This document shows positions 3,210 to 35,800 of a DNA stretch of 64,000 nt, in pieces. Under the pieces are notes generated by a model. The model had not been told where the DNA came from, made no database searches, and saw only the letters and a list, made by a program, of their open reading frames with translations. The stretch's first letter is position 1. Every line of letters starts with the position of its first letter. The stretch spans positions 291 to 64,290 of the forward strand of contig DASWVC010000033.1 of the NCBI GenBank assembly GCA_036401335.1. The letters are read 5' to 3'. A program made the position numbers and the translations under genes. This DNA comes from Chthoniobacterales bacterium. Lineage in GTDB: Bacteria > Verrucomicrobiota > Verrucomicrobiia > Chthoniobacterales > JAFAMB01.

Positions 3210-3460
3210 AATGACAGTTACCTTGGACGCCTCCTCGAGCCGGCCTTAGTCCTTGGTGGACTCAATCGCCAACGAGCCGAAACTCCTGACAATCACCCCG
3301 AACGAAAAGAAGCAATTACCGCGTACAGCGGGATGGAGACGGATTCAAGCTAATCTTTCCGGCACCGGCCGGGGTGCTGCCCCGGAGTCCGACATCGGGG
3401 AAACCAAGCGTGGTAAACGGTTGTGCAGCGCGTCCGTTCCGGCCGTTGCTTCGCAACGGT

Positions 3461-3898
3461 TCACCGTCTGGCCGGTTCGGCCAAGGCTGCCGTTTGGTAA
3501 TGAAATTCGACCGGCAATTTCACGTCCGGGTGCAAACTTTGGTGGACCGGGCAGGTGAGGGCGGCTTTTTCCAGACCCGAGCGAAGGGGGTGATCCTCTG
3601 CCAAGGGCAAATGGATGCTTACCTGCAACTTGCCGATGCGTCGCACCGGCTGTTGAACCATTTCCTTCAGCACCTCAACCCGGGTACCATTAAGGTCCAC
3701 CGCGTGGCGTTTTGCGAACAGGCCCATCACGGTCACCATGCAGCTTCCCAACGCCGCGCCCACCAGGTCGGTCGGGGAAAAAGCAGCGCCGTTTCCGCCG
3801 TTGTCGACCGGTGCGTCGGTCGTTAGTTCGTTACCCGAAGGGGCATGCCGGACCGTCGTGTGCAAGTCACCTTGGTAATGGATCTCGATTTTGACCAT
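3461..3898 (-). CDS. OsmC/Ohr family peroxiredoxin-like protein
   Basis: Conserved SPTDLVGAALGSCM and ALTCPVHQSL (the two family cysteines). The ATG at 3898 (MVKIEIHY) is preferred over the TTG at 3922, which lies inside the repeat arm. Confidence 0.85.
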   Translation of the reverse strand: MVKIEIHYQGDLHTTVRHAPSGNELTTDAPVDNGGNGAAFSPTDLVGAALGSCMVTVMGLFAKRHAVDLNGTRVEVLKEMVQQPVRRIGKLQVSIHLPLAEDHPLRSGLEKAALTCPVHQSLHPDVKLPVEFHYQTAALAEPARR

Positions 3899-4160
3899 GA
3901 AACAATGAACAGCAGTGAACAACGATGAACAACGATGAACAGCAATTCACAGGAATAACTTAAGCATGAAAGGTGGCTTGCCCGGAGCTGAAAAAATAAA
4001 CGGCACTCTCAAACACAGTCGCGCCGCACTTACCGCAAGCAATGCGTCGCGAGCGCGCTCCGAGGCCGAGGCTGTATGGCTTGAATGCGTCACAACCCTA
4101 GCGCTGTCCCATTGTCTCAGAGGTGACTCGGGAATTGCTGTTCATTGCTGTTCATTGCTT
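3899..4160 (-). repeat. Composite palindromic intergenic element, copy A (arms of 10-bp RRTGAACARC units)
   Basis: Left arm 3899-3953 has five 10-bp units. Right arm 4130-4160 is the reverse complement of three units. The core is 176 bp. A second copy with the same architecture lies at 7921-8100. Confidence 0.75.
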
Positions 4161-4997
4161 CAGCCCAAAGAAGGAGCGGGCCGTCTTTGTGGTCTGGGCA
4201 GCGAATTCGGCCAGAGTGATCCCGCGATCGCGCGCAATGGATTCAGCGGTTCGCCGGACGAAGGCGGGTTCGCAGCGTTGTCCTCGATGGGGTACCGGGG
4301 CAAGGTAGGGAGCATCCGTTTCCACCATGAACTGGTTCAATGGCAGCTGGGTCGAGACCGCCCGGGCTTCGGGGGCGTTCTTAAAGGTCACTAAACCGGT
4401 GAACGACACGAGGTGGCCGAGGGCCACCAATTCTTCGGCCTGCGCCAAGTTGCCGCTGAAACAATGGAACACGCCGCGCACCGGGTGCCGCCGAAGGGTG
4501 GCCAGCGTGTCCGCCCAAGCGTCGCGCTGGTGGATGATGACGTTCTTGCCGAATTCCGCCGCGAGTTCGAGTTGCTGTTCAAACACCCGTGCCTGGGCGG
4601 CCTTCACGGCTTCATCTTTGATTTCAAGTTCCAGGGTTGCAGCTGAGCCTGCTCCCAGGGCAGCTTGCACGACGTCCGCTCGTTGCTTGCGGCTCGGCAG
4701 GTAATGGTAATCGAAACCGGTTTCGCCGATGGCGACAACCTTTGGGTGTCGGGCCAGTTCAGCCAGTTCGTCCAGGGAGTCTGGACGGTTCGGTTCAACG
4801 TGATTCGGGTGGACCCCGACCGCCGCGAAAACGCCGGGGTGGCGTTCAGCAAGGGCAATCGCGCGACGACTGGAGTCCAGGTCGGTGCCGATCGTGATGA
4901 TGGTGTGAACCTCTGCCTCCGCAGCCCTGGCCAAAACGGCCGGCAGGTCGTCGGCAAACTCCGGAAAATCCAGGTGCGCGTGGGTATCGGCGAGCAT
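4152..4997 (-). CDS. tatD: TatD family metal-dependent hydrolase
   Basis: 281 aa, starting MLADTHAHLDF (HxH metal motif), with TatD-like TIM-barrel conservation throughout. Confidence 0.92.
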   Translation of the reverse strand: MLADTHAHLDFPEFADDLPAVLARAAEAEVHTIITIGTDLDSSRRAIALAERHPGVFAAVGVHPNHVEPNRPDSLDELAELARHPKVVAIGETGFDYHYLPSRKQRADVVQAALGAGSAATLELEIKDEAVKAAQARVFEQQLELAAEFGKNVIIHQRDAWADTLATLRRHPVRGVFHCFSGNLAQAEELVALGHLVSFTGLVTFKNAPEARAVSTQLPLNQFMVETDAPYLAPVPHRGQRCEPAFVRRTAESIARDRGITLAEFAAQTTKTARSFFGLKQ

Positions 4998-5060
4998 CGC
5001 CTACTGTTGGCCGGAAGTCAGGACGCGTCCAGCACGCCCTGCCCGATCGCAGTTGCCACC

Positions 5061-6083
5061 TCACCATTGGATGACTGAACTTGCCCAGGTAAGCCCACCC
5101 CCGAAGACGACCAGGAGAAGGTAATCCCCGATTTTGATGCGCTGAGTGCGATGGGCCTCGTCCAGGGCCATGGCAACTGCTGCGGCTGACGTGTTCCCGA
5201 ACCGGTCGAGGTTCACGTAAAACTTGTCCATCGGCAGCCGCATCCGAGCCGCGATGGCCTCGATGATTCGGATGTTGGCTTGGTGAGGAATAACGCAGGC
5301 AATGTCTTCGTACCGGAGGCCCGCATCCTCCAACGCACGATTGGCGGCCGTGAACATGGAGTTGACGGCTTGTTTGTAGACTTCCTTGCCGGTCATTTTG
5401 ATGGTGTTCAACCGGTCGTTCACGTTGTCGGCCGTAATCGGGCAGCGGCTTCCGCCGCCTGGCATGATGAGGATGTCAGCGAAAGTGCCGTCGCTGCCCA
5501 TGTACGTGGAAATCACGCCGTGGGAGTCGGGACGGTTGCGCAACACCGCCGCGCCGGCCCCATCACCGAACAGGACGCACGTGTTGCGGTCCGTCCAGTC
5601 CGTGATTGCGCTCAGTTTATCGGCGCCGATGATCAGCACGGTGTTGTACACGTGCGTGGAGATGAACTGTTGCGCAATTTCCAAGGCATACAGAAAGCCG
5701 GCACAAGCGGCGGACACGTCGAAACAAGCCGCATTTACCGCGCCCAATTTTTTCTGCACCCAGCAGGCGGTGGCCGGAAAAGCGGTATCCGGAGTCACCG
5801 TCGCAACAATCAAAAGGTCAATTTCACTGGCCGTCACTTGGGCTTGCTGCATCGCCGCCAAAGCTGCCTCGGCCGCCATGTCGCTCGTACTCTCGTGGAC
5901 ACCGGCGATGCGGCGCTCCCGGATGCCGGTGCGGGCACGAATCCATTCATCGGACGTGTCCACCAGCCGCTCAAGCTCCTGGTTGGTGAGCACCCGTTCG
6001 GGCGCATAGCTGCCGGTGCCAATGACTGAGACGGTGCGACGAGGCTTACTGGACCGGCGTGGTGGCCGTGTTGAACTTCTCAT
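5061..6083 (-). CDS. fabH: 3-oxoacyl-ACP synthase III
   Basis: Active-site Cys in SAACAGFLYAL, plus HQANIRI and GNTSAAA. Start chosen at the ATG at 6083 (MRSSTRPP...), which overlaps the plsX end; the longer ORF to 6188 is unlikely. Confidence 0.88.
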   Translation of the reverse strand: MRSSTRPPRRSSKPRRTVSVIGTGSYAPERVLTNQELERLVDTSDEWIRARTGIRERRIAGVHESTSDMAAEAALAAMQQAQVTASEIDLLIVATVTPDTAFPATACWVQKKLGAVNAACFDVSAACAGFLYALEIAQQFISTHVYNTVLIIGADKLSAITDWTDRNTCVLFGDGAGAAVLRNRPDSHGVISTYMGSDGTFADILIMPGGGSRCPITADNVNDRLNTIKMTGKEVYKQAVNSMFTAANRALEDAGLRYEDIACVIPHQANIRIIEAIAARMRLPMDKFYVNLDRFGNTSAAAVAMALDEAHRTQRIKIGDYLLLVVFGGGLTWASSVIQW

Positions 6084-7077
6084 TACAAAATTGCACCTTG
6101 CGGATAATATGAGGATTGATCTCGTGCTTGATTGATTCGCAAGCCGCGCGGATCGCATTCTTGATCGCGAGCGGAGAACTTGCGCCATGCGCGATGATGC
6201 AGATGCCGTTTACCCCCAGCAAAGGCATCCCTCCGTACTCTTCATAATTCGTTTTTTTGCGAATGGTACGGAACGCTCCTTCCGCAAGTTTGGCCCCGAG
6301 CATTCGAACCGGGGTTCGAACAAGTTCATGCTTTAACCAGGTGAAGATGGCATGGGCGATGGCTTCTGAGGTCTTCAGAACGACGTTGCCCGTGAACCCG
6401 TCGCACACGACCACTTCCGCCGGGTGTTCAAACAGGTCATGGCCTTCAATGTTGCCTCGGAAATTTAACCCGCTGCCCTTAAGCAATTTGAATGCTTCCT
6501 TGGTAACGTCATTTCCTTTCATGTCCTCTTCCCCGATCGACATCAACGCCACCGACGGGTTCTTGTAACCGAGCACGAATTCGGAGAAGACAGCGCCCAT
6601 GATGGCGAATTGCAAAAGGTTTTCTGCGGTAGAATCAGGATTCGCGCCCGCGTCGATCAGTACGAATACCTTGGTCTCCGTGGGCAACAAAACCGCGACG
6701 GCAGGCCGTTCGATGCCTTTCAGCGATCGCAGTTTTAAAACCGAAGCGGCCACAGCTGCGCCGGTGTGACCGGCCGACACCACGGCCTGCGCGGCGTTAT
6801 TCTTAACCAGGTCAACCGCGCGGGAGATGGACGCATCCCGCTTTTGCCGGATCGCTTTAGCCGCTGACTCCCGCATGTTGACCACCTCTGACGCGTGGAA
6901 AATTTCGAGCCGGCTGTCTTGAAACTGGAGGCGTTTCAATTCGGTCCCCACCGTGATCGCGTCGCCCACCAAAAACAATTTTTCCAGGTAGCTGTATTCT
7001 TTAAGAGCCAGTACCGCTCCCTCGACAGTGTTGCGGGGCGCGAAATCCCCGCCCATGGCGTCCAAAGCTATCCTCAT
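6046..7077 (-). CDS. plsX: Phosphate acyltransferase PlsX
   Basis: 343 aa, starting MRIALDAMGGDFAP, with SAGHTGA. Canonical position between rpmF and fabH. Confidence 0.95.
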   Translation of the reverse strand: MRIALDAMGGDFAPRNTVEGAVLALKEYSYLEKLFLVGDAITVGTELKRLQFQDSRLEIFHASEVVNMRESAAKAIRQKRDASISRAVDLVKNNAAQAVVSAGHTGAAVAASVLKLRSLKGIERPAVAVLLPTETKVFVLIDAGANPDSTAENLLQFAIMGAVFSEFVLGYKNPSVALMSIGEEDMKGNDVTKEAFKLLKGSGLNFRGNIEGHDLFEHPAEVVVCDGFTGNVVLKTSEAIAHAIFTWLKHELVRTPVRMLGAKLAEGAFRTIRKKTNYEEYGGMPLLGVNGICIIAHGASSPLAIKNAIRAACESIKHEINPHIIRKVQFCNEKFNTATTPVQ

Positions 7078-7274
7078 AATCCGTGACTCACCGCGGAAGA
7101 CCTGACGAGCCCGTAAGCCCGGTGATTAGCCCAGGAGCCTGGTCCAAGCAACAGGAAATATCCCGGGCTCCACAGGATGGGGGACCCGCTCACCACCCAC
7201 CGGTTTACGGCTGGACGGCACTCGCTTTGGATGAAATCGCCCGCGAAGGCGCGCAGTCCCCTCGGGTGATCAGG

Positions 7275-7457
7275 TCAGGCAACGTCGACCGTCAAAACCT
7301 GACGGCCGTGGTAATAACCACAGGAAGGACAGGCTGTGTGACCGCGCACCCGGCTGCCGCACTGGGCGCACTTGGTTAGTTGCGGCGCGTGCCAGCGATT
7401 TGCGGCTTTGCGTGTGCGCAGCCGCATCTTCGACGTCTTTCTCTTCGGAACACCCAT
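7275..7457 (-). CDS. rpmF: 50S ribosomal protein L32
   Basis: 60 aa, starting [12 protein letters not shown], with a zinc ribbon CAQCG...CPSCG. Confidence 0.95.
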
Positions 7458-7458
7458 C

Positions 7459-7920
7459 TCAGTTTTTCTTTCTTTTCAAGTCTAAATCGGCGAGAGCGTC
7501 CCAGGCGCTAGGCACCTGCGCGGGTTCCTCGGTCCTCAACCCGTCGGTCCGGGGACCTGGACAAATCGTTTTTCCATCCCAGTCACACCGGGGATGCGCT
7601 GGAAGAACGAGGAGGATATCCTCACGCACGTATGGCGTCAAGTCGACTACTTCGGGCCCCGTCACATCAATCTGGGCCGCGAAATCCGGCACCACCAAGT
7701 CGTGCCGAAACCGGCGAAGGCAACTGACGCACTCCATTTCAAGCGTCACCGACAGCCTGCCCGTGGCAAAGAGGGAGCTTCCCGATACGCCGACCTCAAC
7801 ATCGTAGGCAACGTTGTCCAGCGGACGAATGCTCGGGTCATCAAGGTCAAGCATGCCTGGTTCTTCGTACCCGACAAGGTGAAGGCCGGTCGGCGGAATC
7901 TGCAGTAAATGAACCTTCAT
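7459..7920 (-). CDS. yceD: DUF177 / YceD-family protein (large-subunit rRNA accumulation protein)
   Basis: 153 aa with a CxxC...C cluster. Conserved position immediately upstream of rpmF. Confidence 0.88.
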
Positions 7921-8100
7921 GAAACAATGAACAGCAATGAACTGCCGTGAACAACGATGAACATCAATTCACAGGGATGCCTTTGGGGGATAAGGCGGCG
8001 GATTCAATGATTTGAATGCGTCCTAATCTTGGTGGCATCCCATCGTCGTAGAGCTGACTCGGGGATTGACGTTCATTGCTGTTCATTGCTGTTCATCGTC
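7921..8100 (-). repeat. Composite palindromic intergenic element, copy B
   Basis: Left arm 7921-7975 has five 10-bp units. Right arm 8061-8100 has four units in reverse complement. The core is 85 bp. The 50-nt block 8012-8061 aligns with 4081-4130 of copy A (37/50 identical by hand). Confidence 0.75.
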
Positions 8101-8585
8101 TTGGCGTCGAACTTGCTTTTGAGTGCGGCCACCACCGAGGGCGGCACGAATGGATTCACGGCGCCCCCGAGCCGGGCGATCTCCTTTACGATGCGTGAGC
8201 TGAGGTAGGTGTAATCTTCCCGCGGCATGAGGAACACGGTCTCGATGCCGGGTTCCATCTTGCGGTTCATCAAGGCCATCTGGAATTCGAATTCGAAGTC
8301 GGACACGGCCCGCAAGCCCCGGACAATGGCCGTAGCGCCGCGCTTCCGCGCAAACCCGACCAGCAGTCCTTCCAGCAGCACGACCTCCACGTTCGGCAAA
8401 TTGCGGCAACCTTCTTCGATCAAGCCGATACGCTCTGAAAACGAAAAGAGGCCGGAGATTTGTTTTTGATCGTTTGCGGCAACCGCCACGATCAGGCTGT
8501 CAAACAACCTGCTGGCACGTTCGATGACGTCAAGATGACCGTTGGTGACCGGGTCAAAGCTTCCGGGGTAGATCGCTCGGCGCAT
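8073..8585 (-). CDS. coaD: Phosphopantetheine adenylyltransferase
   Basis: Begins MRRAIYPGSFDPVTNGHLDVIERA at the ATG at 8585; the longer ORF to 8798 is an unconserved extension. The last codons MNSNEQQ-stop are encoded by the repeat arm. Confidence 0.93.
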   Translation of the reverse strand: MRRAIYPGSFDPVTNGHLDVIERASRLFDSLIVAVAANDQKQISGLFSFSERIGLIEEGCRNLPNVEVVLLEGLLVGFARKRGATAIVRGLRAVSDFEFEFQMALMNRKMEPGIETVFLMPREDYTYLSSRIVKEIARLGGAVNPFVPPSVVAALKSKFDAKTMNSNEQQ

Positions 8586-8610
8586 GGGGTTACGGGGGAG
8601 ACTTGCGCTT

Positions 8611-9174
8611 TCAGCGACGGGCTTGGCCAAACAGTGCCGGCAAAGGCAGGAACAGGTCGGGGAACGCCACCGGAGCGAGCACGTCGTGAGCCGGAACTTC
8701 GCGGCAGACGGTGTAGGCGGCCGCGTCCGGGTCGGCCTGTTGGTGCACGAGGACCAAGTCGCGCGTGAGGTCGAAGATCCAATATTCGGCGATCCCATTC
8801 CGGGCGTAAGCCCCCCTTTTTACCGTGCGATCGTACCGCAGTGAGCTGTCGGCGACTTCAATGGCCAAAAAGATGTCGTCTGCGAACGCGTAGCGCTCCT
8901 CCGCAAGAACGCGGCGGTGAACCAGGGCCAAGTCCGGCTGCGGCATGGAATGCGCATCCAAACGGAACGGGTTTTGCGGCGAAACAAAGAAGCGGTCGCC
9001 GGCATTCTTGGCCAGAAGTTCGGTGAGACGATTTACCACGTTGGCGTGCCGCGATCCGATCGGCGATTGAACGATCAAATCACCGTCCAGCAGCTCGATG
9101 TGGTCCTCATTGGTAAGTATGCCGGCATGAAAAAGCTTTTCATACCGTTCCACGTCAAAGCGGTAAGTAGTCAT
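8611..9174 (-). CDS. Uma2 family (DUF820) PD-(D/E)xK-type endonuclease
   Basis: Begins MTTYRFDVERYEKLFHAGIL...ELLDGDLIV, with the catalytic-like core PDLALV...LAIEVADSSLRYDRTVKRGAYARNGIAEYWIFDL. Start at the ATG at 9174. Confidence 0.85.
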   Translation of the reverse strand: MTTYRFDVERYEKLFHAGILTNEDHIELLDGDLIVQSPIGSRHANVVNRLTELLAKNAGDRFFVSPQNPFRLDAHSMPQPDLALVHRRVLAEERYAFADDIFLAIEVADSSLRYDRTVKRGAYARNGIAEYWIFDLTRDLVLVHQQADPDAAAYTVCREVPAHDVLAPVAFPDLFLPLPALFGQARR

Positions 9175-9253
9175 AGCTTTAGACCTTCCAATTCTGGGCC
9201 TGAACCCGTAGGGTGAGGTCGTCGCGCGCCCCCGGTCGGGTCCATGCAAGGAA

Positions 9254-10834
9254 TCATTCCCACTCGATCGTGCTTGGCGGTTTGCTGGAAACATCGTAGC
9301 AGACCCGGTTTACCCCTTTGACTTCGTTGATTACCCGAGCCGAAATCCGCGCCAGGATTTCATACGGAAGGCGCACCCAGTCGGCGGTCATGCCATCCTG
9401 GCTTTCGACGATGCGCACGGCCACGGTGTCTTCATACGTGCGTTGATCGCCCATGACGCCTACCGATCTTATGGGCAACAGCACCGCAAACGATTGCCAG
9501 ACCTTGTAATACCAATCGGCGGCCTTCATCTCGTTTACCACGATCTCGTCTGCCTGGCGCAGGACCCGCAGGCGTTCCGGGGTGATCTCGCCCAGGATGC
9601 GCACCCCGAGTCCTGGACCCGGGAACGGCTGCCGAAAAACGATTTCCTTTGGCAGTTCCAGCTCAAGCCCGACCTGACGCACTTCATCCTTGAACAGCTG
9701 CCGCAACGGTTCCAGCAGCTCGAGGTCCATTTTTTCAGGAAGGCCGCCTACGTTGTGGTGGCTTTTGATCAAGGCAGCCGGGTTTCCGCCGATTGCCACG
9801 CTCTCAATGACGTCAGGGTAAAGCGTGCCTTGCGCCAGGTAATGGTAGCGTCCTTCACCCGTGTCCGAAGCTTTCAACTCCCGGGTGGCCTCCTCGAACA
9901 CACGGATGAACTCTTCCCCGATGATCTTGCGCTTTCGTTCCGGATCGACGATGCCCTGCAAACGGTTGAGGAACCGGCTCGACGCATCCACGTAGCGCAA
10001 CTTAATGTGGAAGTTCTCGCCAAAGATCTTTTGCACGGTTTCCGCTTCGCGCGTCCGCAGAAGTCCGTTGTTGACGAAGACGCAGGTCAGACGGTCGCCC
10101 AACGCCCGGTGCAGCAACGCGGCCGCCACCGACGAGTCAACACCGCCGGAAAGACCGAGCACCACTTTGTCCGGGCCAACCCGGGCGTTGATCTCGCGAC
10201 AGGTCTGCTCAATGAACGAGCCCATGGTCCAATCGCCCGCGCAGCCGCAGACCTTGTACAAAAAGTTTTCCAGGATCTCTTTGCCAAGCGGCGTGTGCGC
10301 CACTTCCGGATGAAACTGCAACCCGTACAACTTACGCTTCCGATCTTCGATGGCGGCAAAAGGGGAATTTTCTGTGACGCCGATCGACCGAAAGCCTGGC
10401 GGAAGGCCGGTGACTTTGTCGCCGTGGCTGTTCCAGACCTGGAATTGTTCAGGCAAGGCCTCGAAAAGAGGGCTGGCGCCGGCGGTCGTAAGGTAGCCCG
10501 GACCGTATTCGCGGCGGTCGGAATACTCCACCCGGCCGTCCAAAAAGTGCGCCATTAACTGAACGCCGTAGCAAATTCCGAGGACCGGAACCTCCATTTC
10601 GAAAATCGCCGGGTCAGGGAGGGGTGCGTGGGCTGAGAACACGCTGGCGGGCCCTCCCGAGAGGATGATCCCCTGCGCACCGGTGCGGCGAATGGTTTCC
10701 GGGGCACAATCAAAAGGGAGGATTTCGGAGTAAACGCGGCACTCACGAATCCGTCGTGCAATGACCTGGGTGTACTGGGATCCGAAATCTAGGATCACCA
10801 CCTTGGAAACGGAAAGCATTTCGCCGTTGCTCAT
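9254..10834 (-). CDS. guaA: GMP synthase (glutamine-hydrolysing)
   Basis: GATase part [18 protein letters not shown] with GICYG, ATP-PPase loop SGGVDSS, and C-terminus PPSTIEWE. Start at ATG 10834, or 10819. Confidence 0.95.
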
Positions 10835-25318: not shown

Positions 25319-26476
25319 TTAGGCTTTTGCCAGCAAGTCCTGCGCGTACCGACGCGCGGCCAAATCGGCTTCCATTATACCATCCAATGAAGGAGTCGCC
25401 AAGTAGGGCACCCCGTTCATGGCTTGTTCCACGGTCCGCCAGATTGCCGGGAACGAGATCCGGCCGTTCAGAAACGCTTCGACAGCTACCTCGTTGGCCG
25501 CGTTCATCACGGCTGGCAGGGTACCCCCTTTAACGCCGGCGAGCCTGGCCAGGTTAAGGGCCGGGAAATCGTGGTAACGGGGTTCCTCAAACTCCAGGCG
25601 TCCCCATTCAGCGAGGCGCAACGGCTTCAGCTTGTTGGGCACGCGGTCCGGCCAGGTCACCGCGTATTGGATCGGGAAACACATGTCGGAGTGGCTGAGT
25701 TGCGCGAGAATGGAATGGTCAACGAACTCCACCATGGAATGAACAATGCTCTGTGGATGCACGAGCACCTGCAGGCGATCCATCGGCACCCCGAACAACC
25801 AGCGGGCCTCGATCATTTCCAGCCCTTTGTTGAAGAGGGTGGCGGAATCGATGCTGATTTTCGGGCCCATCGACCATGTCGGGTGCTTAAGCGCCTGCGC
25901 GGGCGTGACGCGCTCAAGGTCCGCTGCATTCATCTGCCGAAACGGCCCGCCTGACGCCGTGATGATCAGGTTTGCCACGTGTGCGGCCGGCCGGTTTTCG
26001 AGGCATTGGAAGATGGCGTTGTGTTCGCTGTCAACCGGCAGAATCATTCGGCCCTGCCGGGCGGCTTGGTCCATGACCATTTCGCCCGCCATTACGAGAA
26101 TTTCTTTGCTTGCCACCGCCAGGTCTTTTCCGCTGGCCAACGCGGCCAGCGCCGGTCGCAGCCCTTTCGTGCCGACGATGGCGACCACCACGAGGTCCGC
26201 CTCGGTATGGGTGGCAAGCTGCACCAGGCCCTCCTCGCCCGCATAGATCTCAGGATGGTACGCCAGCAACCCCTTTAGCTTGGGCATTGCCTCGGCCTCA
26301 ACCAGGCAGAGCGCCTCCGGGCGTAGCAAGTTGGCATGTTCCGCCAGTTTTTCCGCGCTGCGATGGGCGGCCATTCCGACCACCTTCATCCGTGCGGGCA
26401 GCGTCTGGGCTACCTGGATCGCACTTGCACCGATGGAACCCGTGGCCCCGAGCAGAATGACGCGGCGCATCCTCAT
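25319..26476 (-). CDS. dxr: 1-deoxy-D-xylulose 5-phosphate reductoisomerase
   Basis: LLGATGSIG NADPH motif, with LPVDSEHNAIFQ and HPTWSMG. Confidence 0.95.
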   Translation of the reverse strand: MRMRRVILLGATGSIGASAIQVAQTLPARMKVVGMAAHRSAEKLAEHANLLRPEALCLVEAEAMPKLKGLLAYHPEIYAGEEGLVQLATHTEADLVVVAIVGTKGLRPALAALASGKDLAVASKEILVMAGEMVMDQAARQGRMILPVDSEHNAIFQCLENRPAAHVANLIITASGGPFRQMNAADLERVTPAQALKHPTWSMGPKISIDSATLFNKGLEMIEARWLFGVPMDRLQVLVHPQSIVHSMVEFVDHSILAQLSHSDMCFPIQYAVTWPDRVPNKLKPLRLAEWGRLEFEEPRYHDFPALNLARLAGVKGGTLPAVMNAANEVAVEAFLNGRISFPAIWRTVEQAMNGVPYLATPSLDGIMEADLAARRYAQDLLAKA

Positions 26477-26504
26477 TTCAAAAGGAGAAGGAATCTCAGG
26501 ATCC

Positions 26505-27368
26505 TCATTTCAGAACGAATCTGAGGTAAAAATACATCAAGGGAGCCGTGAAGAGAATGCTGTCCACCAGGTCGAGGATACCACCGATGCCTGGCAGCAC
26601 GCTGCCCGAATCCTTTACCCCGGTGCTTCGTTTGATCATCGATTCACCCAGGTCGCCGCCCACGGCCGCTACCCCGATGAGAAACCCGAGGGCGGTCCCA
26701 TGCGCAAAATTCAGGTAGTGAAGCTGGTGCGGAAGCAACCAGATCACGAGGTAGCTCCCGAGAATGGAAAACAAAAATGACCCCACAAAACCTTCCCAGG
26801 TCTTGCCGGGGCTGATGTGCGGCGCCATCTGGTGCCGGCCGAACCGGCTGCCGACCAGGTAAGCTCCCATGTCGCTGAATTTGGTCACCACGATCAGGTA
26901 CAACACGTAAAATTGCCCCAGCAGCGAGCCGTCGGGAGCGCGGGGCACGAGGTAAACGATTTTCGTGATGAAATTAAACAGCCAGGCCACATACAACAAT
27001 CCAAAAAGGGTGTAGGCCATTGCTTCCAGGGGCGTGGCTTTCGCCACCGGCCGGAACGTTTGACGCGCAAAGACCCCAATCAAAAAGACCAGCAGCATTG
27101 CCAGTTCAAAGTCGTAAGCCGATTCAATTCCGCGAGCCCGTAAGTAAAGGAAAGTGCCAAGAAAGGAGGCAGCGCCGCTGGTCAACCCAAAAGCTTTGAA
27201 ACACTGCCGCCCGCTCCGCTGGATCATGTTGAAATATTCCCAGAGGCTGATGAACCCCAGCGAGCTGATAAACAGGAGGAAAACGACGTCGTTGCCGGAA
27301 AAGATCACGGCCAGCGCAATCGTCCACATTGCGATCGCGCTTACCAGCCTGCGAAGGAAACGACTCAT
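26505..27368 (-). CDS. cdsA: Phosphatidate cytidylyltransferase
   Basis: Polytopic membrane protein with C-terminal signature GDLGESMIKRSTGVKDSGSVLPGIGGILD. Start at ATG 27368 (MSRFLRRL); alternative at 27419. Confidence 0.86.
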   Translation of the reverse strand: MSRFLRRLVSAIAMWTIALAVIFSGNDVVFLLFISSLGFISLWEYFNMIQRSGRQCFKAFGLTSGAASFLGTFLYLRARGIESAYDFELAMLLVFLIGVFARQTFRPVAKATPLEAMAYTLFGLLYVAWLFNFITKIVYLVPRAPDGSLLGQFYVLYLIVVTKFSDMGAYLVGSRFGRHQMAPHISPGKTWEGFVGSFLFSILGSYLVIWLLPHQLHYLNFAHGTALGFLIGVAAVGGDLGESMIKRSTGVKDSGSVLPGIGGILDLVDSILFTAPLMYFYLRFVLK

Positions 27369-31412: not shown

Positions 31413-31771
31413 ACATTTTTAGGATTTTTGAATAGCTGTCACTAATAATTAGTCCGGAAAACAAGCAAAAGGGGGTATGCTTCAGGCAACGCGGCCGTTC
31501 AATCAACCTGCACATGCTTCGCATGGCAGCGATGCCGTGAACCAGACCCGAGAGGAGAGAATAATCGTGAAAAAACTTTAGGGTATCCATTCAGACCCGA
31601 ATGAGAATGCCATAATAACAGGAAAATCTATGGGAGAAGGATTTTTGACGTATTTGGCTGCCGGTTCACCCGAACCGGAGTTGCCTCAGCTGGGGCGCGG
31701 CCGTGCCAAGGGAGGGTTGTTTTGCTTGGGATTGGGGGCCAGACCCGGTCGAACGGTCCGGCCTGCTTAAC

Positions 31772-34700
31772 ATGAACCCTCTTTCCCACGAATCATCGGC
31801 CTCTCCCCGTGAGAGAACCGTTCCTCTGACGGAGTCGCAGAAGGGGCTTTACACGCTGTGCGCGATGGACCCGGGTGCCTCCCGGGCCTATAACGAATCC
31901 TTAACGTGCCGTCTGCGCGGGCCGTACAACCACGCGGCCATGGAAGCTGCATTCCAGGTTTTGGCCGACACGCATGAGGCTTTGCGGGCGCGGGTTGATC
32001 CCGATGGAGAATCTCAAACCATTGCGCGCTCAGTGCACTTTCCGGTGCCTTTGGGTGACCTGACAGCGCTGCCGGGCGAAACCCGGGCGGCGGAGACGGC
32101 AAGGCTGTTGCACGAATTTTCCCAGGTCCTTTTCGATCCCGCAAAGCCACCGCTTTTCCGAGCCATGGTGGTGAAGCAAGACGAGGACGTTCACCTGCTC
32201 ACGGTAACGCATGGAGCGATCTACGGAAACGGTCCGTCCCGCAAGAACATCGTTGAGCAGGCGCTGGACGTTTACGCAGCCAGGGACGGTCGCGTGCCTC
32301 CGATGCAACTGTCGGAGTACGTGGCGCGGCGTGCATTGGATGAGAATGATCCGCGGCACGAGGCATTCTGGACCCACGAGTTTCCGGATGCCCCGGTCCC
32401 GCTGGAGTTGCCCTCGGACTTCCCACGGCCGCCGGCCCCGTCGTACCGCGGTGAGCGTGCCTGGAGAACGGTGGATAAACAGACCACCGCTGCCCTCCGG
32501 CAAGTTGCGTCGGCCCACCAATGTTCCTTGTTCGCATTGGTCCTGACCACCTGGCAGGTGTTGCTGCACCGTCTCTCCGGCCAGGATGACTTGGTGGTGG
32601 GCGTCCCTTCCGACAGCAGGCTCCGGTCCGCGCACCCGGGCGGACCGGCGTTGATCGCAAATACCACCAACCTGCTGCCGCTACGAAGCCGCTTCAACGC
32701 CGGAATGCGTTTTTCGGAGCAACTGGAACGGACCAGGCAATTGGTCGCCGGTGCGATCGAGCACCAAGAATATTTTTTCGGCCGTATCCTGGATCGGCTG
32801 AACCTGGTGCGGGACCCGGCAAGATCGCCCCTTTTTTCTGTAGCCTTGAATTTTCAAAAGGCTTTTCGATTTGCCCCGGCAGGCGCTCTGGAGGCAGAAC
32901 CGCTAAGGCACGAATACCCTTACCAGGCGGCCAGGAACTCCGCCGCTTTTGACCTTTTTCTCCATGTCACGGACCAGGGATCGGCCCTCGAGCTGCACGC
33001 TGATTTCTGCTCCGACCTTTTTCTGCCGGAAACGGTCGAGCGGTGGCTGAAACACCTGTGCGCGCTGTTTGAGAGCGTAGTGGCGGACCCGGGCGGTCAG
33101 TGCCAGGCACTGCCGATCCTCACCTCCGCGGAGCGAACCTGCCTGCTGCAAGGTTGGAACGAGACGCACCGCGATTACCCCACCGACATTTTTCTGCATC
33201 AATTCGTCGAGCGGCAGGTTGCACGGACCCCGGACGGCGTCGCCGTGGTCTATGAAGGCGATCTCCTGACGTACGGCGAACTCAACGCCCGGGCCAACCG
33301 AATAGCGCACCGGTTGCAGGCGCTGGGCATTGCTCCGGGAGCGTTGGTGGGCCTCCTGGCCGAGCGGTCGCCGGAAATGGTGATCGGGATCCTGGCGATC
33401 TTGAAAGCCGGTGGAGCTTACGTGCCGCTGGAGCCGAATTACCCGGAGGAGCGTTTGCATTTCCTCTTGCAAGACGCGCAATCTTCCGTGGTGCTGCTCC
33501 AACGACGTTACCGGCCCAAGGTGGCAGGGTTTCAGGGGCTGGTAGTCGAGTTGGAAGCGGATTTCACCACCGAAGGGGACGCCAACCCGGTCAGCGGCGT
33601 GGGGCGGGGAGACGCCGCCTACGTGATTTACACGTCCGGATCTACTGGAAAACCCAAAGGCGTTCTGAACTCGCACGGCGGGCTGGCGAACTGGTTGTTC
33701 TGGATGCAGGAGACTTTTCCGATGGGATCCGGGGACACGATGCTGTTCAAAGCCCCGTTCACCTTTGATGTCTCGGTCCGCGAGGTGTTCATGCCTTTGG
33801 CGGTTGGCGGGTGCATGGTGGTCGCGCGGCCCGGGTTGCATGGAGACAGCCGGCACCTGGTCGACCTCACTACCCGTCATGGCGTGACCATCCTGCATTT
33901 TGTGCCGCCGATGCTGGCCGCGTTCCTTGAGGACCGTGACGTCCGGCGGTGCTCCTCCCTTCGCCTGGTCATGTGCAGCGGCGATGCGCTTTCGTACGAT
34001 TTACAGGAGCGTTTTTTCGACGTTTTCCCCGGCCTTGAGCTCCACAACATGTGGGGCGCGACCGAGCACGCCCCGGAGTCGACCCACTGGCGGTGCGTGC
34101 CCGGACGTCGGAACGGGATCGTCGCCGTTGGCCGCCCGGGTGCGAACACGCAGCTGTACATCCTGGACCGAGCTTTCCAACCGGTCCCCATCGGGGTAAC
34201 GGGGGAAGCTTACCTCGGCGGGGTGCAGACCGCGTTGGGCTACCTGGGCCGCCCCGAGTTGACGGCCCAGAAATTCCTTCCGAACCCATACCACCCGGGC
34301 ACGCTGTACCGAACCGGCGATCTCGGCCGTTTTCGACCCGACGGGGTGATGGAGTTCATGGGCCGGATTGACTTCCAGGTCAAACTGCGCGGGTTCCGCG
34401 TCGAGCTGGGCGAGATAGAGGCGGTCCTCCTCAAGCACGCTGGGATCCGCGAATGCGTCGCGGCTGTGCGGGGCGCGCCTTCGGACCCGGCCAAACGCCT
34501 GGTCGCCTACCTCGTGGGGGATCCAGCTCCAGTGGACAGCCTGCGGCGGCACGCGGCGCTCAGTTTGCCGGAATACATGGTGCCGTCGGCGTTTGTCTTC
34601 CTGGATCGGCTTCCCGTAACCGCGAACGGCAAACTGGATCGGTCAGCGCTTCCCGAGCCCGCCATGGAGGTGCGGGTGGCCAGGGAGCCGAGGGATGCAA

Positions 34701-35800
34701 CGGAAGCACAGCTGATTGCAATCTGGGAGAAGGTACTGGGCCGGTCGCCGGTAGGGGTGACCGACAACTTCTTTGACCTCGGGGGTAATTCCCTTCTTGC
34801 CTTGAAAGCATTTAGCTTGATCCGGGAAGTCGTGGGGGTGAACCTGCCGCTGGCGACGTTGTTTCAGGCACCGAACGTCGAAAGGTTGGCGGCCAAAGTG
34901 CGGGAAACGGCTGCAGACCAGGAATGGGAGCCGCTGGTGGCAATCCAGTTGCAGGGCAGCCGTCCGCCTTTCTTTGCGGTGCATGGCCGAAATGGCAACG
35001 TCCTTTTCTACCGTAAGCTTTCCGAGCTGCTGGGGTCCCAGCAACCCTTTTATGGGCTGCAATCCCAGGGACTGGACGGCAAACCGATGCTCCGCTCCAC
35101 CGTAGAAGAAATCGGTGAGTACTACTTGGAGAAGATCCGTGCGGTGCAACCGCAGGGTCCCTACCTGCTCGGCGGCTATTCGTTCGGGGCGGTGGCAGCT
35201 TACGAGATCGCCCGCCGCCTGCGAGAGCAGGGGGAGGAGATTGCGCTCCTGGCAATGTTCGACATTTACAACCCGGCACGACCGCCCCGGCTGCTTTCCT
35301 ACACAGAAAAGTTCCGGCATCGCATCATGGATGCGGAAGCACGAACGCCTAACCGGGTCCTGCAGTTCCTCGCCCGCCGGACCAAAGGCCGGGTAAGTGA
35401 ACGGTTGCTAAAGTGGAATGAGCTTTCCCGTCGGTTACTGTTGCAAACGGTGAAACGGACCGAGGACAACTCGCCGGAACTCGTGGATCTTCACGTCCAG
35501 ATGGTTCACGAACGCGCGTTTGTCTCCTACCGGCCCAGGCCATTCAATGGAAAAATCACCCTTTTCCGGGCGCTCATGGTGCCGGATGGGTATGAGTATG
35601 AGGCAGAAATGGGGTGGACCGGGTTGGCCGCTCAAGGCATCGAGATTCACGACGTTCCCGGCGATCATTTCACCATCTTCCACGAGGAAAATGTGCCGAT
35701 GCTGGCCGAAAAACTTTCGGCCTGCATCGAGGCGGCTCTAACAAGCATTGGTTCGGGTTCAAGCCCGTCCATGCACCCGGCACCTTATCCCAGCCGATAG
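31772..35800 (+). CDS. Single-module nonribosomal peptide synthetase, C-A-T-TE
   Basis: Start is ATG 31772 (or GTG 31703). See the domain sub-features below for motifs. Residue numbers are counted from the GTG at 31703. Confidence 0.9.
31820..33112 (+). other. NRPS condensation domain (degenerate C3 motif)
   Basis: C1 [12 protein letters not shown]2 [10 protein letters not shown]5 [13 protein letters not shown]7 RDPARSPLF. The HHxxxDG position reads THGAIYG (nt 32207-32227). Confidence 0.8.
33185..34657 (+). other. NRPS adenylation domain
   Basis: A2 [13 protein letters not shown]3 [12 protein letters not shown]4 [10 protein letters not shown]5 NMWGATEH, A7 YRTGDLGR, A8 [21 protein letters not shown]10 NGKLDR. 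Confidence 0.9.
34694..34906 (+). other. NRPS thiolation (PCP) domain
   Basis: [13 protein letters not shown]; the putative phosphopantetheinyl Ser codon is at 34790-34792. Confidence 0.85.
34955..35722 (+). other. NRPS thioesterase domain
   Basis: PFFAVHG, nucleophile elbow GGYSFG (nt 35174-35188), candidate Asp in LAMFD and His in VPGDHFTIF. Confidence 0.85.

Follow-up and report, generated by a model that had tools for sequence, protein, structure and literature searches.

A putative REP/MITE-like foldback repeat of decamer units at gene junctions of a Chthoniobacterales genome

Results

Two inverted decamer-array elements in the coaD–yceD and tatD–osmC spacers

The DNA analysed here, a 64-kb stretch of a Chthoniobacterales MAG that is hereafter called the window, carries about 49 long ORFs; the 30 that were scanned against Pfam belong to housekeeping or biosynthetic genes, except for one that is unassigned (151–1791). 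All genes of the region from coaD to osmC lie on the minus strand, and Pfam confirms CoaD, YceD, L32, PlsX, FabH, TatD and OsmC in the window. Four genes border the spacers with which this study is concerned:

8073–8585, minus strand: coaD, 170 aa; native to about ...KFDAK, followed by TMNSNEQQ and the stop (8073–8075) from a repeat arm
7459–7920, minus strand: yceD/DUF177, 153 aa; ATG at 7918–7920, with an MK(V/I)HL start as in orthologues
4152–4997, minus strand: tatD, 281 aa; stop (4152–4154) within an arm of copy 1
3461–3899, minus strand: osmC-like gene; ATG at 3899–3897, fitting the MVKIEI start of orthologues

Directly upstream of coaD is a gene for a Uma2-family putative endonuclease (8611–9294, minus strand), which is also present in L111 (4075–4683), this position being held by guaA in other relatives. 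Further along the window, a single-module NRPS of 1365 aa with condensation, adenylation, carrier and thioesterase domains (31703–35800, plus strand) is set among housekeeping genes.

The coaD–yceD and tatD–osmC spacers contain two copies of one element, at 7920–8100 (copy 2, 181 bp) and 3898–4162 (copy 1, 265 bp), in which inverted arms of tandem 10-nt CRRTGAACAN units flank a variable core. On the coding strand of both spacers, CRRTGAACAN units run in tandem in the arm beside the upstream gene, and the inverted run forms the arm beside the downstream gene:

8056–8100, minus strand: copy 2 upstream arm, coding strand CGATGAACAG CAATGAACAG CAATGAACGT CAAT; holds the last seven coaD codons and the stop
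7979–8055, minus strand: copy 2 core; its upstream-arm side (8007–8066) is the block common with copy 1, the remainder being unique
7920–7978, minus strand: copy 2 downstream arm; four GTTCA units, a degenerate inner unit and the 8-nt terminal unit TTGTTTCA; abuts the yceD ATG
4128–4162, minus strand: copy 1 upstream arm, TGAAGCAA TGAACAGCAA TGAACAGCAA TTC; gives K, Q and the stop (4152–4154) of tatD
3957–4127, minus strand: copy 1 core; includes the common block (4076–4135) and 91 nt that are missing from copy 2
3898–3956, minus strand: copy 1 downstream arm; ends in TGCTGTTCATTGTTTCA and abuts the osmC ATG (3897–3899)

The two copies hold every one of the nine occurrences of the motif TGAAC-N5-TGAAC in the 64-kb window, for which the expected number is 0.08. 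Tandem Repeats Finder reports period-10 arrays at 3901–3946, 4134–4159, 7925–7968 and 8071–8096, and the arms form inverted-repeat pairs (3898–3926/4134–4162 and 7924–7952/8071–8099) of 29 nt each that are 86% complementary; complementarity between arms of different copies is higher (92%) than within a copy. Each arm consists of 3–5 tandem units with a G+C content of about 40%, and the two arms of one copy are unequal in length. Both copies finish with the same 19 nt, whose end is the downstream start codon; three of their four ends carry TGAARCAA, a terminal unit of 8 nt. Beside the upstream arm, a common block (4081–4135 and 8012–8066) is 74.5% identical over 55 nt (E=4e-4), whereas the cores as a whole differ in length (about 176 bp in copy 1 versus about 85 bp in copy 2); neither copy contains an ORF of its own. 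An earlier sequence-only reading of this DNA had described much of this arrangement, and its account is borne out in the common architecture of period-10 inverted arms with shared ends and block, the position of the coaD stop inside one arm and of the yceD ATG against the other, the identity of the 16 nt TGCTGTTCATTGTTTC preceding both downstream ATGs, the conserved block (counted by hand as 37/50 identical), the variable core, and the conclusion, with which the motif counts agree, that this is not random low-complexity DNA. The two copies, the only ones visible in these 64 kb of the host genome, are homologous, as their common ends and block show; lying 4 kb apart, they look like recent paralogues and are therefore not independent events but effectively a sample of one.

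A separate repeat, a 32-nt tandem duplication with 72% identity, lies on the minus strand at the junction of cdsA (PF01148) and dxr (26451–26514); each of its copies contains TGAAATGAGGAT, the first holding the cdsA stop and the second lying just before the dxr ATG.

Reading frames that enter the arms

Every TGAAC unit carries a TGA and the 10-nt period rotates the frame, so that an ORF entering an arm stops within three units. In the inward direction, whichever strand is read, TGAAC-type arms present TGA in all three frames within that distance; read outward, the same units contain no stop codon. As a consequence of the inward stops, a truncated gene gains a tail of at most 10 residues, which accounts for the short tails of CoaD (three units) and TatD (one unit), whose last seven and last two codons, respectively, are encoded together with the stop by the arms. 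The sequence-only reading correctly took the MNSNEQQ tail of CoaD and its stop as arm sequence and went on to propose that the repeat had been recruited as coding sequence; such recruitment need not be invoked for either tail, an inward TGA being sufficient. As judged from the arm sequences, the same frame behaviour would explain why the element is tolerated at gene ends. At the other loci of the family described below, ORF ends are also frequently located within arms. An HMGL-like ORF in L189 (1942–2010) and L012 (1347–1413) crosses the left arm and the loop into the right arm, acquiring a tail (AMNNSEQ...) that is 21 residues long in both.

Presence of the element at both junctions is specific to the host lineage

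The CoaD of the window is 100% identical to a protein whose annotation assigns it to a Chthoniobacterales MAG. Relatives whose CoaD is 69–75% identical to that of the host keep the gene order coaD-yceD-rpmF-plsX-fabH-tatD-osmC-RRM. A comparison of orthologues, which the sequence-only reading had put forward as a check, sets the host apart from them: beyond ...ALxxKF, CoaD C-termini vary in length and sequence, and among 120 sequences compared MNSNEQQ is present in none of the 119 others; moreover, no 10-nt arrays are found at the same junctions of L112, L113, L115, L117, L118 and L239, or in about 105 kb of syntenic DNA of relatives. In these relatives GGAGG lies 6–9 nt 5' of the same yceD ATG; before the yceD ATG of the window there is no Shine-Dalgarno sequence, and the arm runs up to the ATG itself. 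Because the tail is unique and the junctions of relatives are array-free, both copies appear to be lineage-specific acquisitions at coaD–yceD and tatD–osmC. A candidate closer relative, P0002, was rejected (65% identity, a 19-nt coaD–yceD spacer and no array), and alignment gives no support to descent of the common block from the native coaD–yceD spacer of relatives.

Logan contigs from two independent runs (SRR11271805 and SRR11271806) end in the upstream arm of copy 2, at positions 8067 and 8094 of the window, and neighbouring contigs (L001, L247, L248) overlap by 28 nt at 8067–8094. Contig ends of this kind are the usual signature of a multi-copy k-mer and thus hint at more copies, with poor read coverage over the hairpin being a cause that could also produce them.

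A dispersed family of GAAC decamer foldbacks

Pattern scans, noisy as they are, identified elements of the same architecture in L012 and L073 (Chthoniobacterales SMAG_U11518), L091, L100 and L107 (Verrucomicrobiota BP_749), L136, L189 and L221 (metagenome contigs grouped with these loci by genes in common and unit type) and L088 (a Gemmatimonadetes MAG). The Verrucomicrobiota loci have runs of CAACGAACGT and CAGTGAACAA units with an inverted run close behind, up to three elements being found per 8 kb, and in L088 an 84-nt core is flanked by CAATGAACAA arms; the scheme (GATGAACACC)n ... (GGTGTTCATC)n recurs in many high-GC contigs from metagenomes. In general, 10-nt units of the form C-A/G-R-Y-GAAC-R-N make up one array, which a core or loop of between 4 and about 260 nt separates from the inverted array. 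A logo of 112 units reads C-A-R-Y-G-A-A-C-R-N, with GAAC invariant and only transitions at positions 3, 4 and 9, and two unit types, TGAACA and CGAACG, can be distinguished. Arrays contain 3 to 19 units and the two arms are unequal; arm separations fall into a short (18–36 nt) and a cored (67–261 nt) class; element ends are not fixed across loci, and cores are either unrelated between loci or absent.

In the metagenome search, the TGAACA core and the 10-nt period were built into the pattern; an inverted partner was not. Among 72 distinct GAAC arrays of at least three units in high-GC loci, a GTTC array follows within 320 nt downstream in 24 and lies upstream in only 3. The possibility that the window elements are chance low-complexity DNA, or products of local slippage with no wider family, draws on there being just two copies in the window, close together; set against the motif excess reported above, the recurrence of the same architecture at many loci of other genomes and this 24:3 arrangement bias, it is refuted in practice. 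Taken together, these loci document a dispersed family in Chthoniobacterales and, in the form of similar units, in other high-GC soil and freshwater bacteria.

Other scans delimit the family. The core-block pattern had no matches in the metagenome collection and is absent from all fetched loci. The arm pattern had none in 2.9 million viral contigs, where a looser pattern found five unrelated one-sided tandem arrays with no inverted partner. In a genome-collection scan with an 18-nt arm pattern, whose coverage did not extend to the host genome of the window, the matches listed were mostly due to chance. A literature search on repeat sequences and on Verrucomicrobia repeats found no description of this family.

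Unit positions 4 and 9 covary in L012, L073, L091, L100, L107, L136, L189 and L221, where mixes of TGAACA and CGAACG are rare, as would be expected if CpG decayed to TpG/CpA with GAAC spared, or if two unit types spread by 20-nt slippage. A second foldback family that is abundant in high-GC metagenome contigs (L130, L133, L144, L149, L216, L217, L220, L225, L231 and L236) consists of (GATGAACACC)n, a core and (GGTGTTCATC)n, and has GCCACC/GGTGGC feet, often with outer A-runs and T-runs like those of bidirectional terminators; in L231 (about 940–1070) the core of such an element contains another tandem-unit hairpin of CACAGAGA-type units, so that short-tandem-unit foldbacks may exist with other unit sequences. 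A Lewinella MAG carries long arrays of the same decamer (L053 1–130; L042; L076), the order being reversed in L053, with GTTC units before GAAC units.

Gene context and orientation

Gene contexts were derived from Pfam-checked neighbours, a GC3-based automatic census having been discarded after it mis-called the window's own genes:

L189 locus A: between DUF1800 and HMGL-like genes, convergent
L189 locus B: between citrate-synthase-like and ICMT/PEMT genes, convergent
L189 locus C: between ICMT/PEMT and putA, divergent
L073 and L091: before an ABC-transporter ATG, tandem
L107: TsaD-family (Pfam TsaD) stop in one arm and argG ATG 14 nt past the other arm, tandem

Given that convergent, divergent and tandem contexts all occur, placement at a stop/start junction is not a trait of the family. 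Locus B is represented by a simple hairpin in L100, an element with a 135-nt core in L189 and half an element in L012, indicating that cores come and go. Since arm units read alike on both strands, the arms are neutral with respect to orientation and only the core orients a copy; two paralogous copies would agree by chance half the time, so their common orientation carries no statistical weight. Two arguments of the sequence-only reading are thereby lost, namely the strict orientation of the copies, which concerns two paralogues oriented by their cores, and a selected or site-preferring placement at stop/start junctions, to which the contexts listed above run counter.

Predicted folding and regulatory scans

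In transcripts of the window the arms of each copy are predicted to pair (folding z = −5.9 and −4.3), the predicted stem of copy 2 extending from 8101 to 7921, the final base before the AUG. In only 2 of the 6 elements of known orientation does the sense strand give the better fold of the two, and the arms of a copy conform to the family unit and do not co-vary with each other; with neither a sense-strand bias nor covariation between arms, there is no sign of RNA-specific selection.

These data bear on the proposal that the element is a selected, site-preferring stop/start module that couples or gates translation of the downstream gene. In both window copies one arm contains the stop of the upstream gene and the other adjoins the downstream ATG, the predicted stem hides 35 nt before an AUG that has lost its Shine-Dalgarno sequence, and L107 repeats the arrangement. 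The window copies, however, amount to a single case, other members lie between convergent or divergent genes, the arms are indifferent to orientation and folding does not favour the sense strand. Such a module is conceivable for the two window loci, if quite unlikely, and is unsupported as a family trait.

A search of the whole window against Rfam 15 gave no match at gathering thresholds, and nothing relevant at E<=5 within 3700–8300. Promoter and terminator scans of 3400–9400 found nothing in the cores; the terminator scan returned 7 sites, compared with a shuffle mean of 7.6, and its lone match in an arm (7948–7931) has a mixed tail and a stem of 7 pairs, 3 of them G-C. Neither full arm pair is followed 3' by a G+C-rich stem and T run of the kind that defines an intrinsic terminator. 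The 55-nt block could in principle be the functional part, as a small RNA or a cis-regulatory leader to which the arms are incidental, being the sole core sequence kept between the two copies; this is very improbable, as the block matches nothing in Rfam even at permissive thresholds, has no promoter or terminator, finds no counterpart in the metagenome collection or any fetched locus, and is replaced by unrelated cores, or none, in members elsewhere.

Divergence between species

Where two species carry an element at the same position, its divergence is slower than that of synonymous sites. At locus A (L189 versus L012) the element is 90% identical and third codon positions of the adjacent gene are 76% identical (binomial p about 1e-3), and at locus D (L073 versus L091) the respective values, in a plain comparison of identities, are 85% and 68%; one arm at locus A has 3 units in L012 versus 4 in L189. 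Slow divergence of this kind is a sign of purifying selection or else of homogenisation among the copies, and concerted evolution, rather than function, could be its source.

Discussion

At both loci, the element is probably, in our moderately confident judgement, a REP/MITE-like non-coding foldback repeat of decamer units. According to this interpretation, the present lineage would have acquired it at coaD–yceD and tatD–osmC; spread or maintenance of the element presumably takes place at the DNA level, with unit numbers changing by slippage. In the mRNA, pairing of the arms is predicted to give a stem of roughly 35 bp, which begins shortly 5' of the coaD stop, extends to the nucleotide immediately preceding the yceD AUG and would replace the Shine-Dalgarno sequence seen in relatives; translation of yceD may then depend on ribosomes that finish coaD and unwind this structure, or else on its cleavage. 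An effect of the stem on yceD or osmC translation is suggested by folding models.

The element shares features with several known systems. REP, BIME and REPIN sequences of Enterobacteria and Pseudomonas are GTAG- or CGTC-tagged palindromes of 20–40 nt that are linked to RAYTs (PMC3733652, PMC3116915). Like REPs and REPINs, the decamer foldbacks are short, non-coding, hairpin-forming and intergenic, often follow stops directly and are partly conserved in position between species; unlike them, they have arms made of tandem 10-nt arrays, no terminal tag and loops of up to 260 nt, and no RAYT gene is seen among the 30 of about 49 long ORFs scanned in these 64 kb of the host genome. As for a GTAG or CGTC foot, the only GTAG of copy 2 is located in the core (8047–8050), and copy 1 ends without a tag. 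The REPs of Opitutus terrae are of the GTAG type and thus different from the decamer foldbacks.

Bacterial MITEs that overlap gene ends include the Correia/NEMIS elements of Neisseria and the RPE of Rickettsia, and MITEs in general are characterised by termini that are fixed, a conserved body and duplication of the target site. Both copies fall within the MITE range of size and structure (terminal inverted repeats, no coding capacity, 50–500 bp), and the family resembles MITEs in its terminal inverted repeats, length of 100–300 bp, lack of an ORF, variable internal deletions and alteration of gene termini; it differs in that ends vary between loci, cores are unrelated between loci and no duplication was found. 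When candidate target sites were compared by eye, the flanks of copy 1 (GACCA/GCCCA) matched at 4 of 5 positions and those of copy 2 (CTTCA/GCGTC) did not match. No fetched locus contains a transposase or other autonomous partner, and none has an array pair flanking a transposase. Eukaryotic Foldback (FB) transposons have long inverted arms of tandem sub-repeats at the kilobase scale; they too have variable unit numbers, unequal arms and a loop that is nearly absent or carries extra sequence, a likeness in form only that, given their eukaryotic hosts and size, implies no homology.

The STRR of cyanobacteria are short tandem intergenic repeats, in the form of 7-nt direct repeats. In Beggiatoaceae, TAACTGA forms intergenic 7-nt direct repeats (PMC4679880). 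Short tandem units in many intergenic regions of one lineage, with possible post-transcriptional roles, are features in common with the decamer foldbacks, but the descriptions of STRR and TAACTGA repeats include no obligatory inverted partner array. Iterons of phages or plasmids were rejected, the neighbours being chromosomal housekeeping genes and no viral contig having the arm pattern; an ECF-sigma promoter, parS, the GTTC target of IS91 and the TG...CA ends of the IS3 type were set aside on motif or spacing.

The main rival to the REP/MITE-like interpretation, and an unlikely one, is that the arms are operator arrays on which an oriented DNA-binding protein reads YGAACR once per helical turn in both facing arms, regulating or insulating the core or the neighbouring genes. 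Operator arrays with a 10–11 bp period are known from OmpR/PhoB-type boxes and from the parC iterons of plasmid R1, which flank a promoter. They, too, place units once per helical turn, the parC arrays likewise flanking a core, but they serve one or few regulated loci in direct orientation, whereas the arms of decamer foldbacks are inverted. Erill et al. reportedly described in 2016 a Verrucomicrobia LexA operator of the form TGTTC-N4-GAACA, which has the GAACA pentamer in common with the decamer; neither copy contains a visible TGTTC-N4-GAACA, and the repeats here are direct, with 5-nt spacers. Constraint on eight of the ten positions in a unit, GAAC being invariant and changes at the others being transitions only, is what operators would predict, as are the exact 10-bp period, arms that fit the family unit rather than each other, divergence below that of synonymous sites, the lack of an RNA strand bias and the filling of a divergent promoter region by one element (L189 locus C). 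No candidate protein is known, however; the genes beside the elements are unrelated housekeeping genes in all orientations, convergent ends among them; unit numbers range from 3 to 19 in unequal arms; the window cores have no promoter-like site; and the 10-nt period and TGAACA core of the metagenome matches were set by the search pattern.

A broader and equally doubtful proposal is that GAAC-decamer foldbacks constitute a functional, undescribed system of Verrucomicrobiota and other soil phyla, in which a putative oriented DNA-binding or -processing protein reads YGAACR at every helical turn on two facing arrays and organises intergenic regions, for instance as insulators, roadblocks or recombination sites. 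Such a protein would account for the invariance of the core, the strictness with which arrays face each other and the slower-than-synonymous divergence at positions shared between species.

Chthoniobacterales are among the most abundant bacteria of soil, and their genome biology is little explored. The family reported here, possibly undescribed, reshapes gene ends, removes ribosome-binding sites and probably breaks short-read assemblies. For annotation, this means lineage-specific C-terminal tails and false start sites produced by the arms and, for assembly and binning, contig ends that fall within them. The stopping of incoming frames in all three phases, with outgoing frames left open, offers a simple reason why such elements can occupy gene boundaries and, should the arrays bind a protein, they would add a new genome-organising system.
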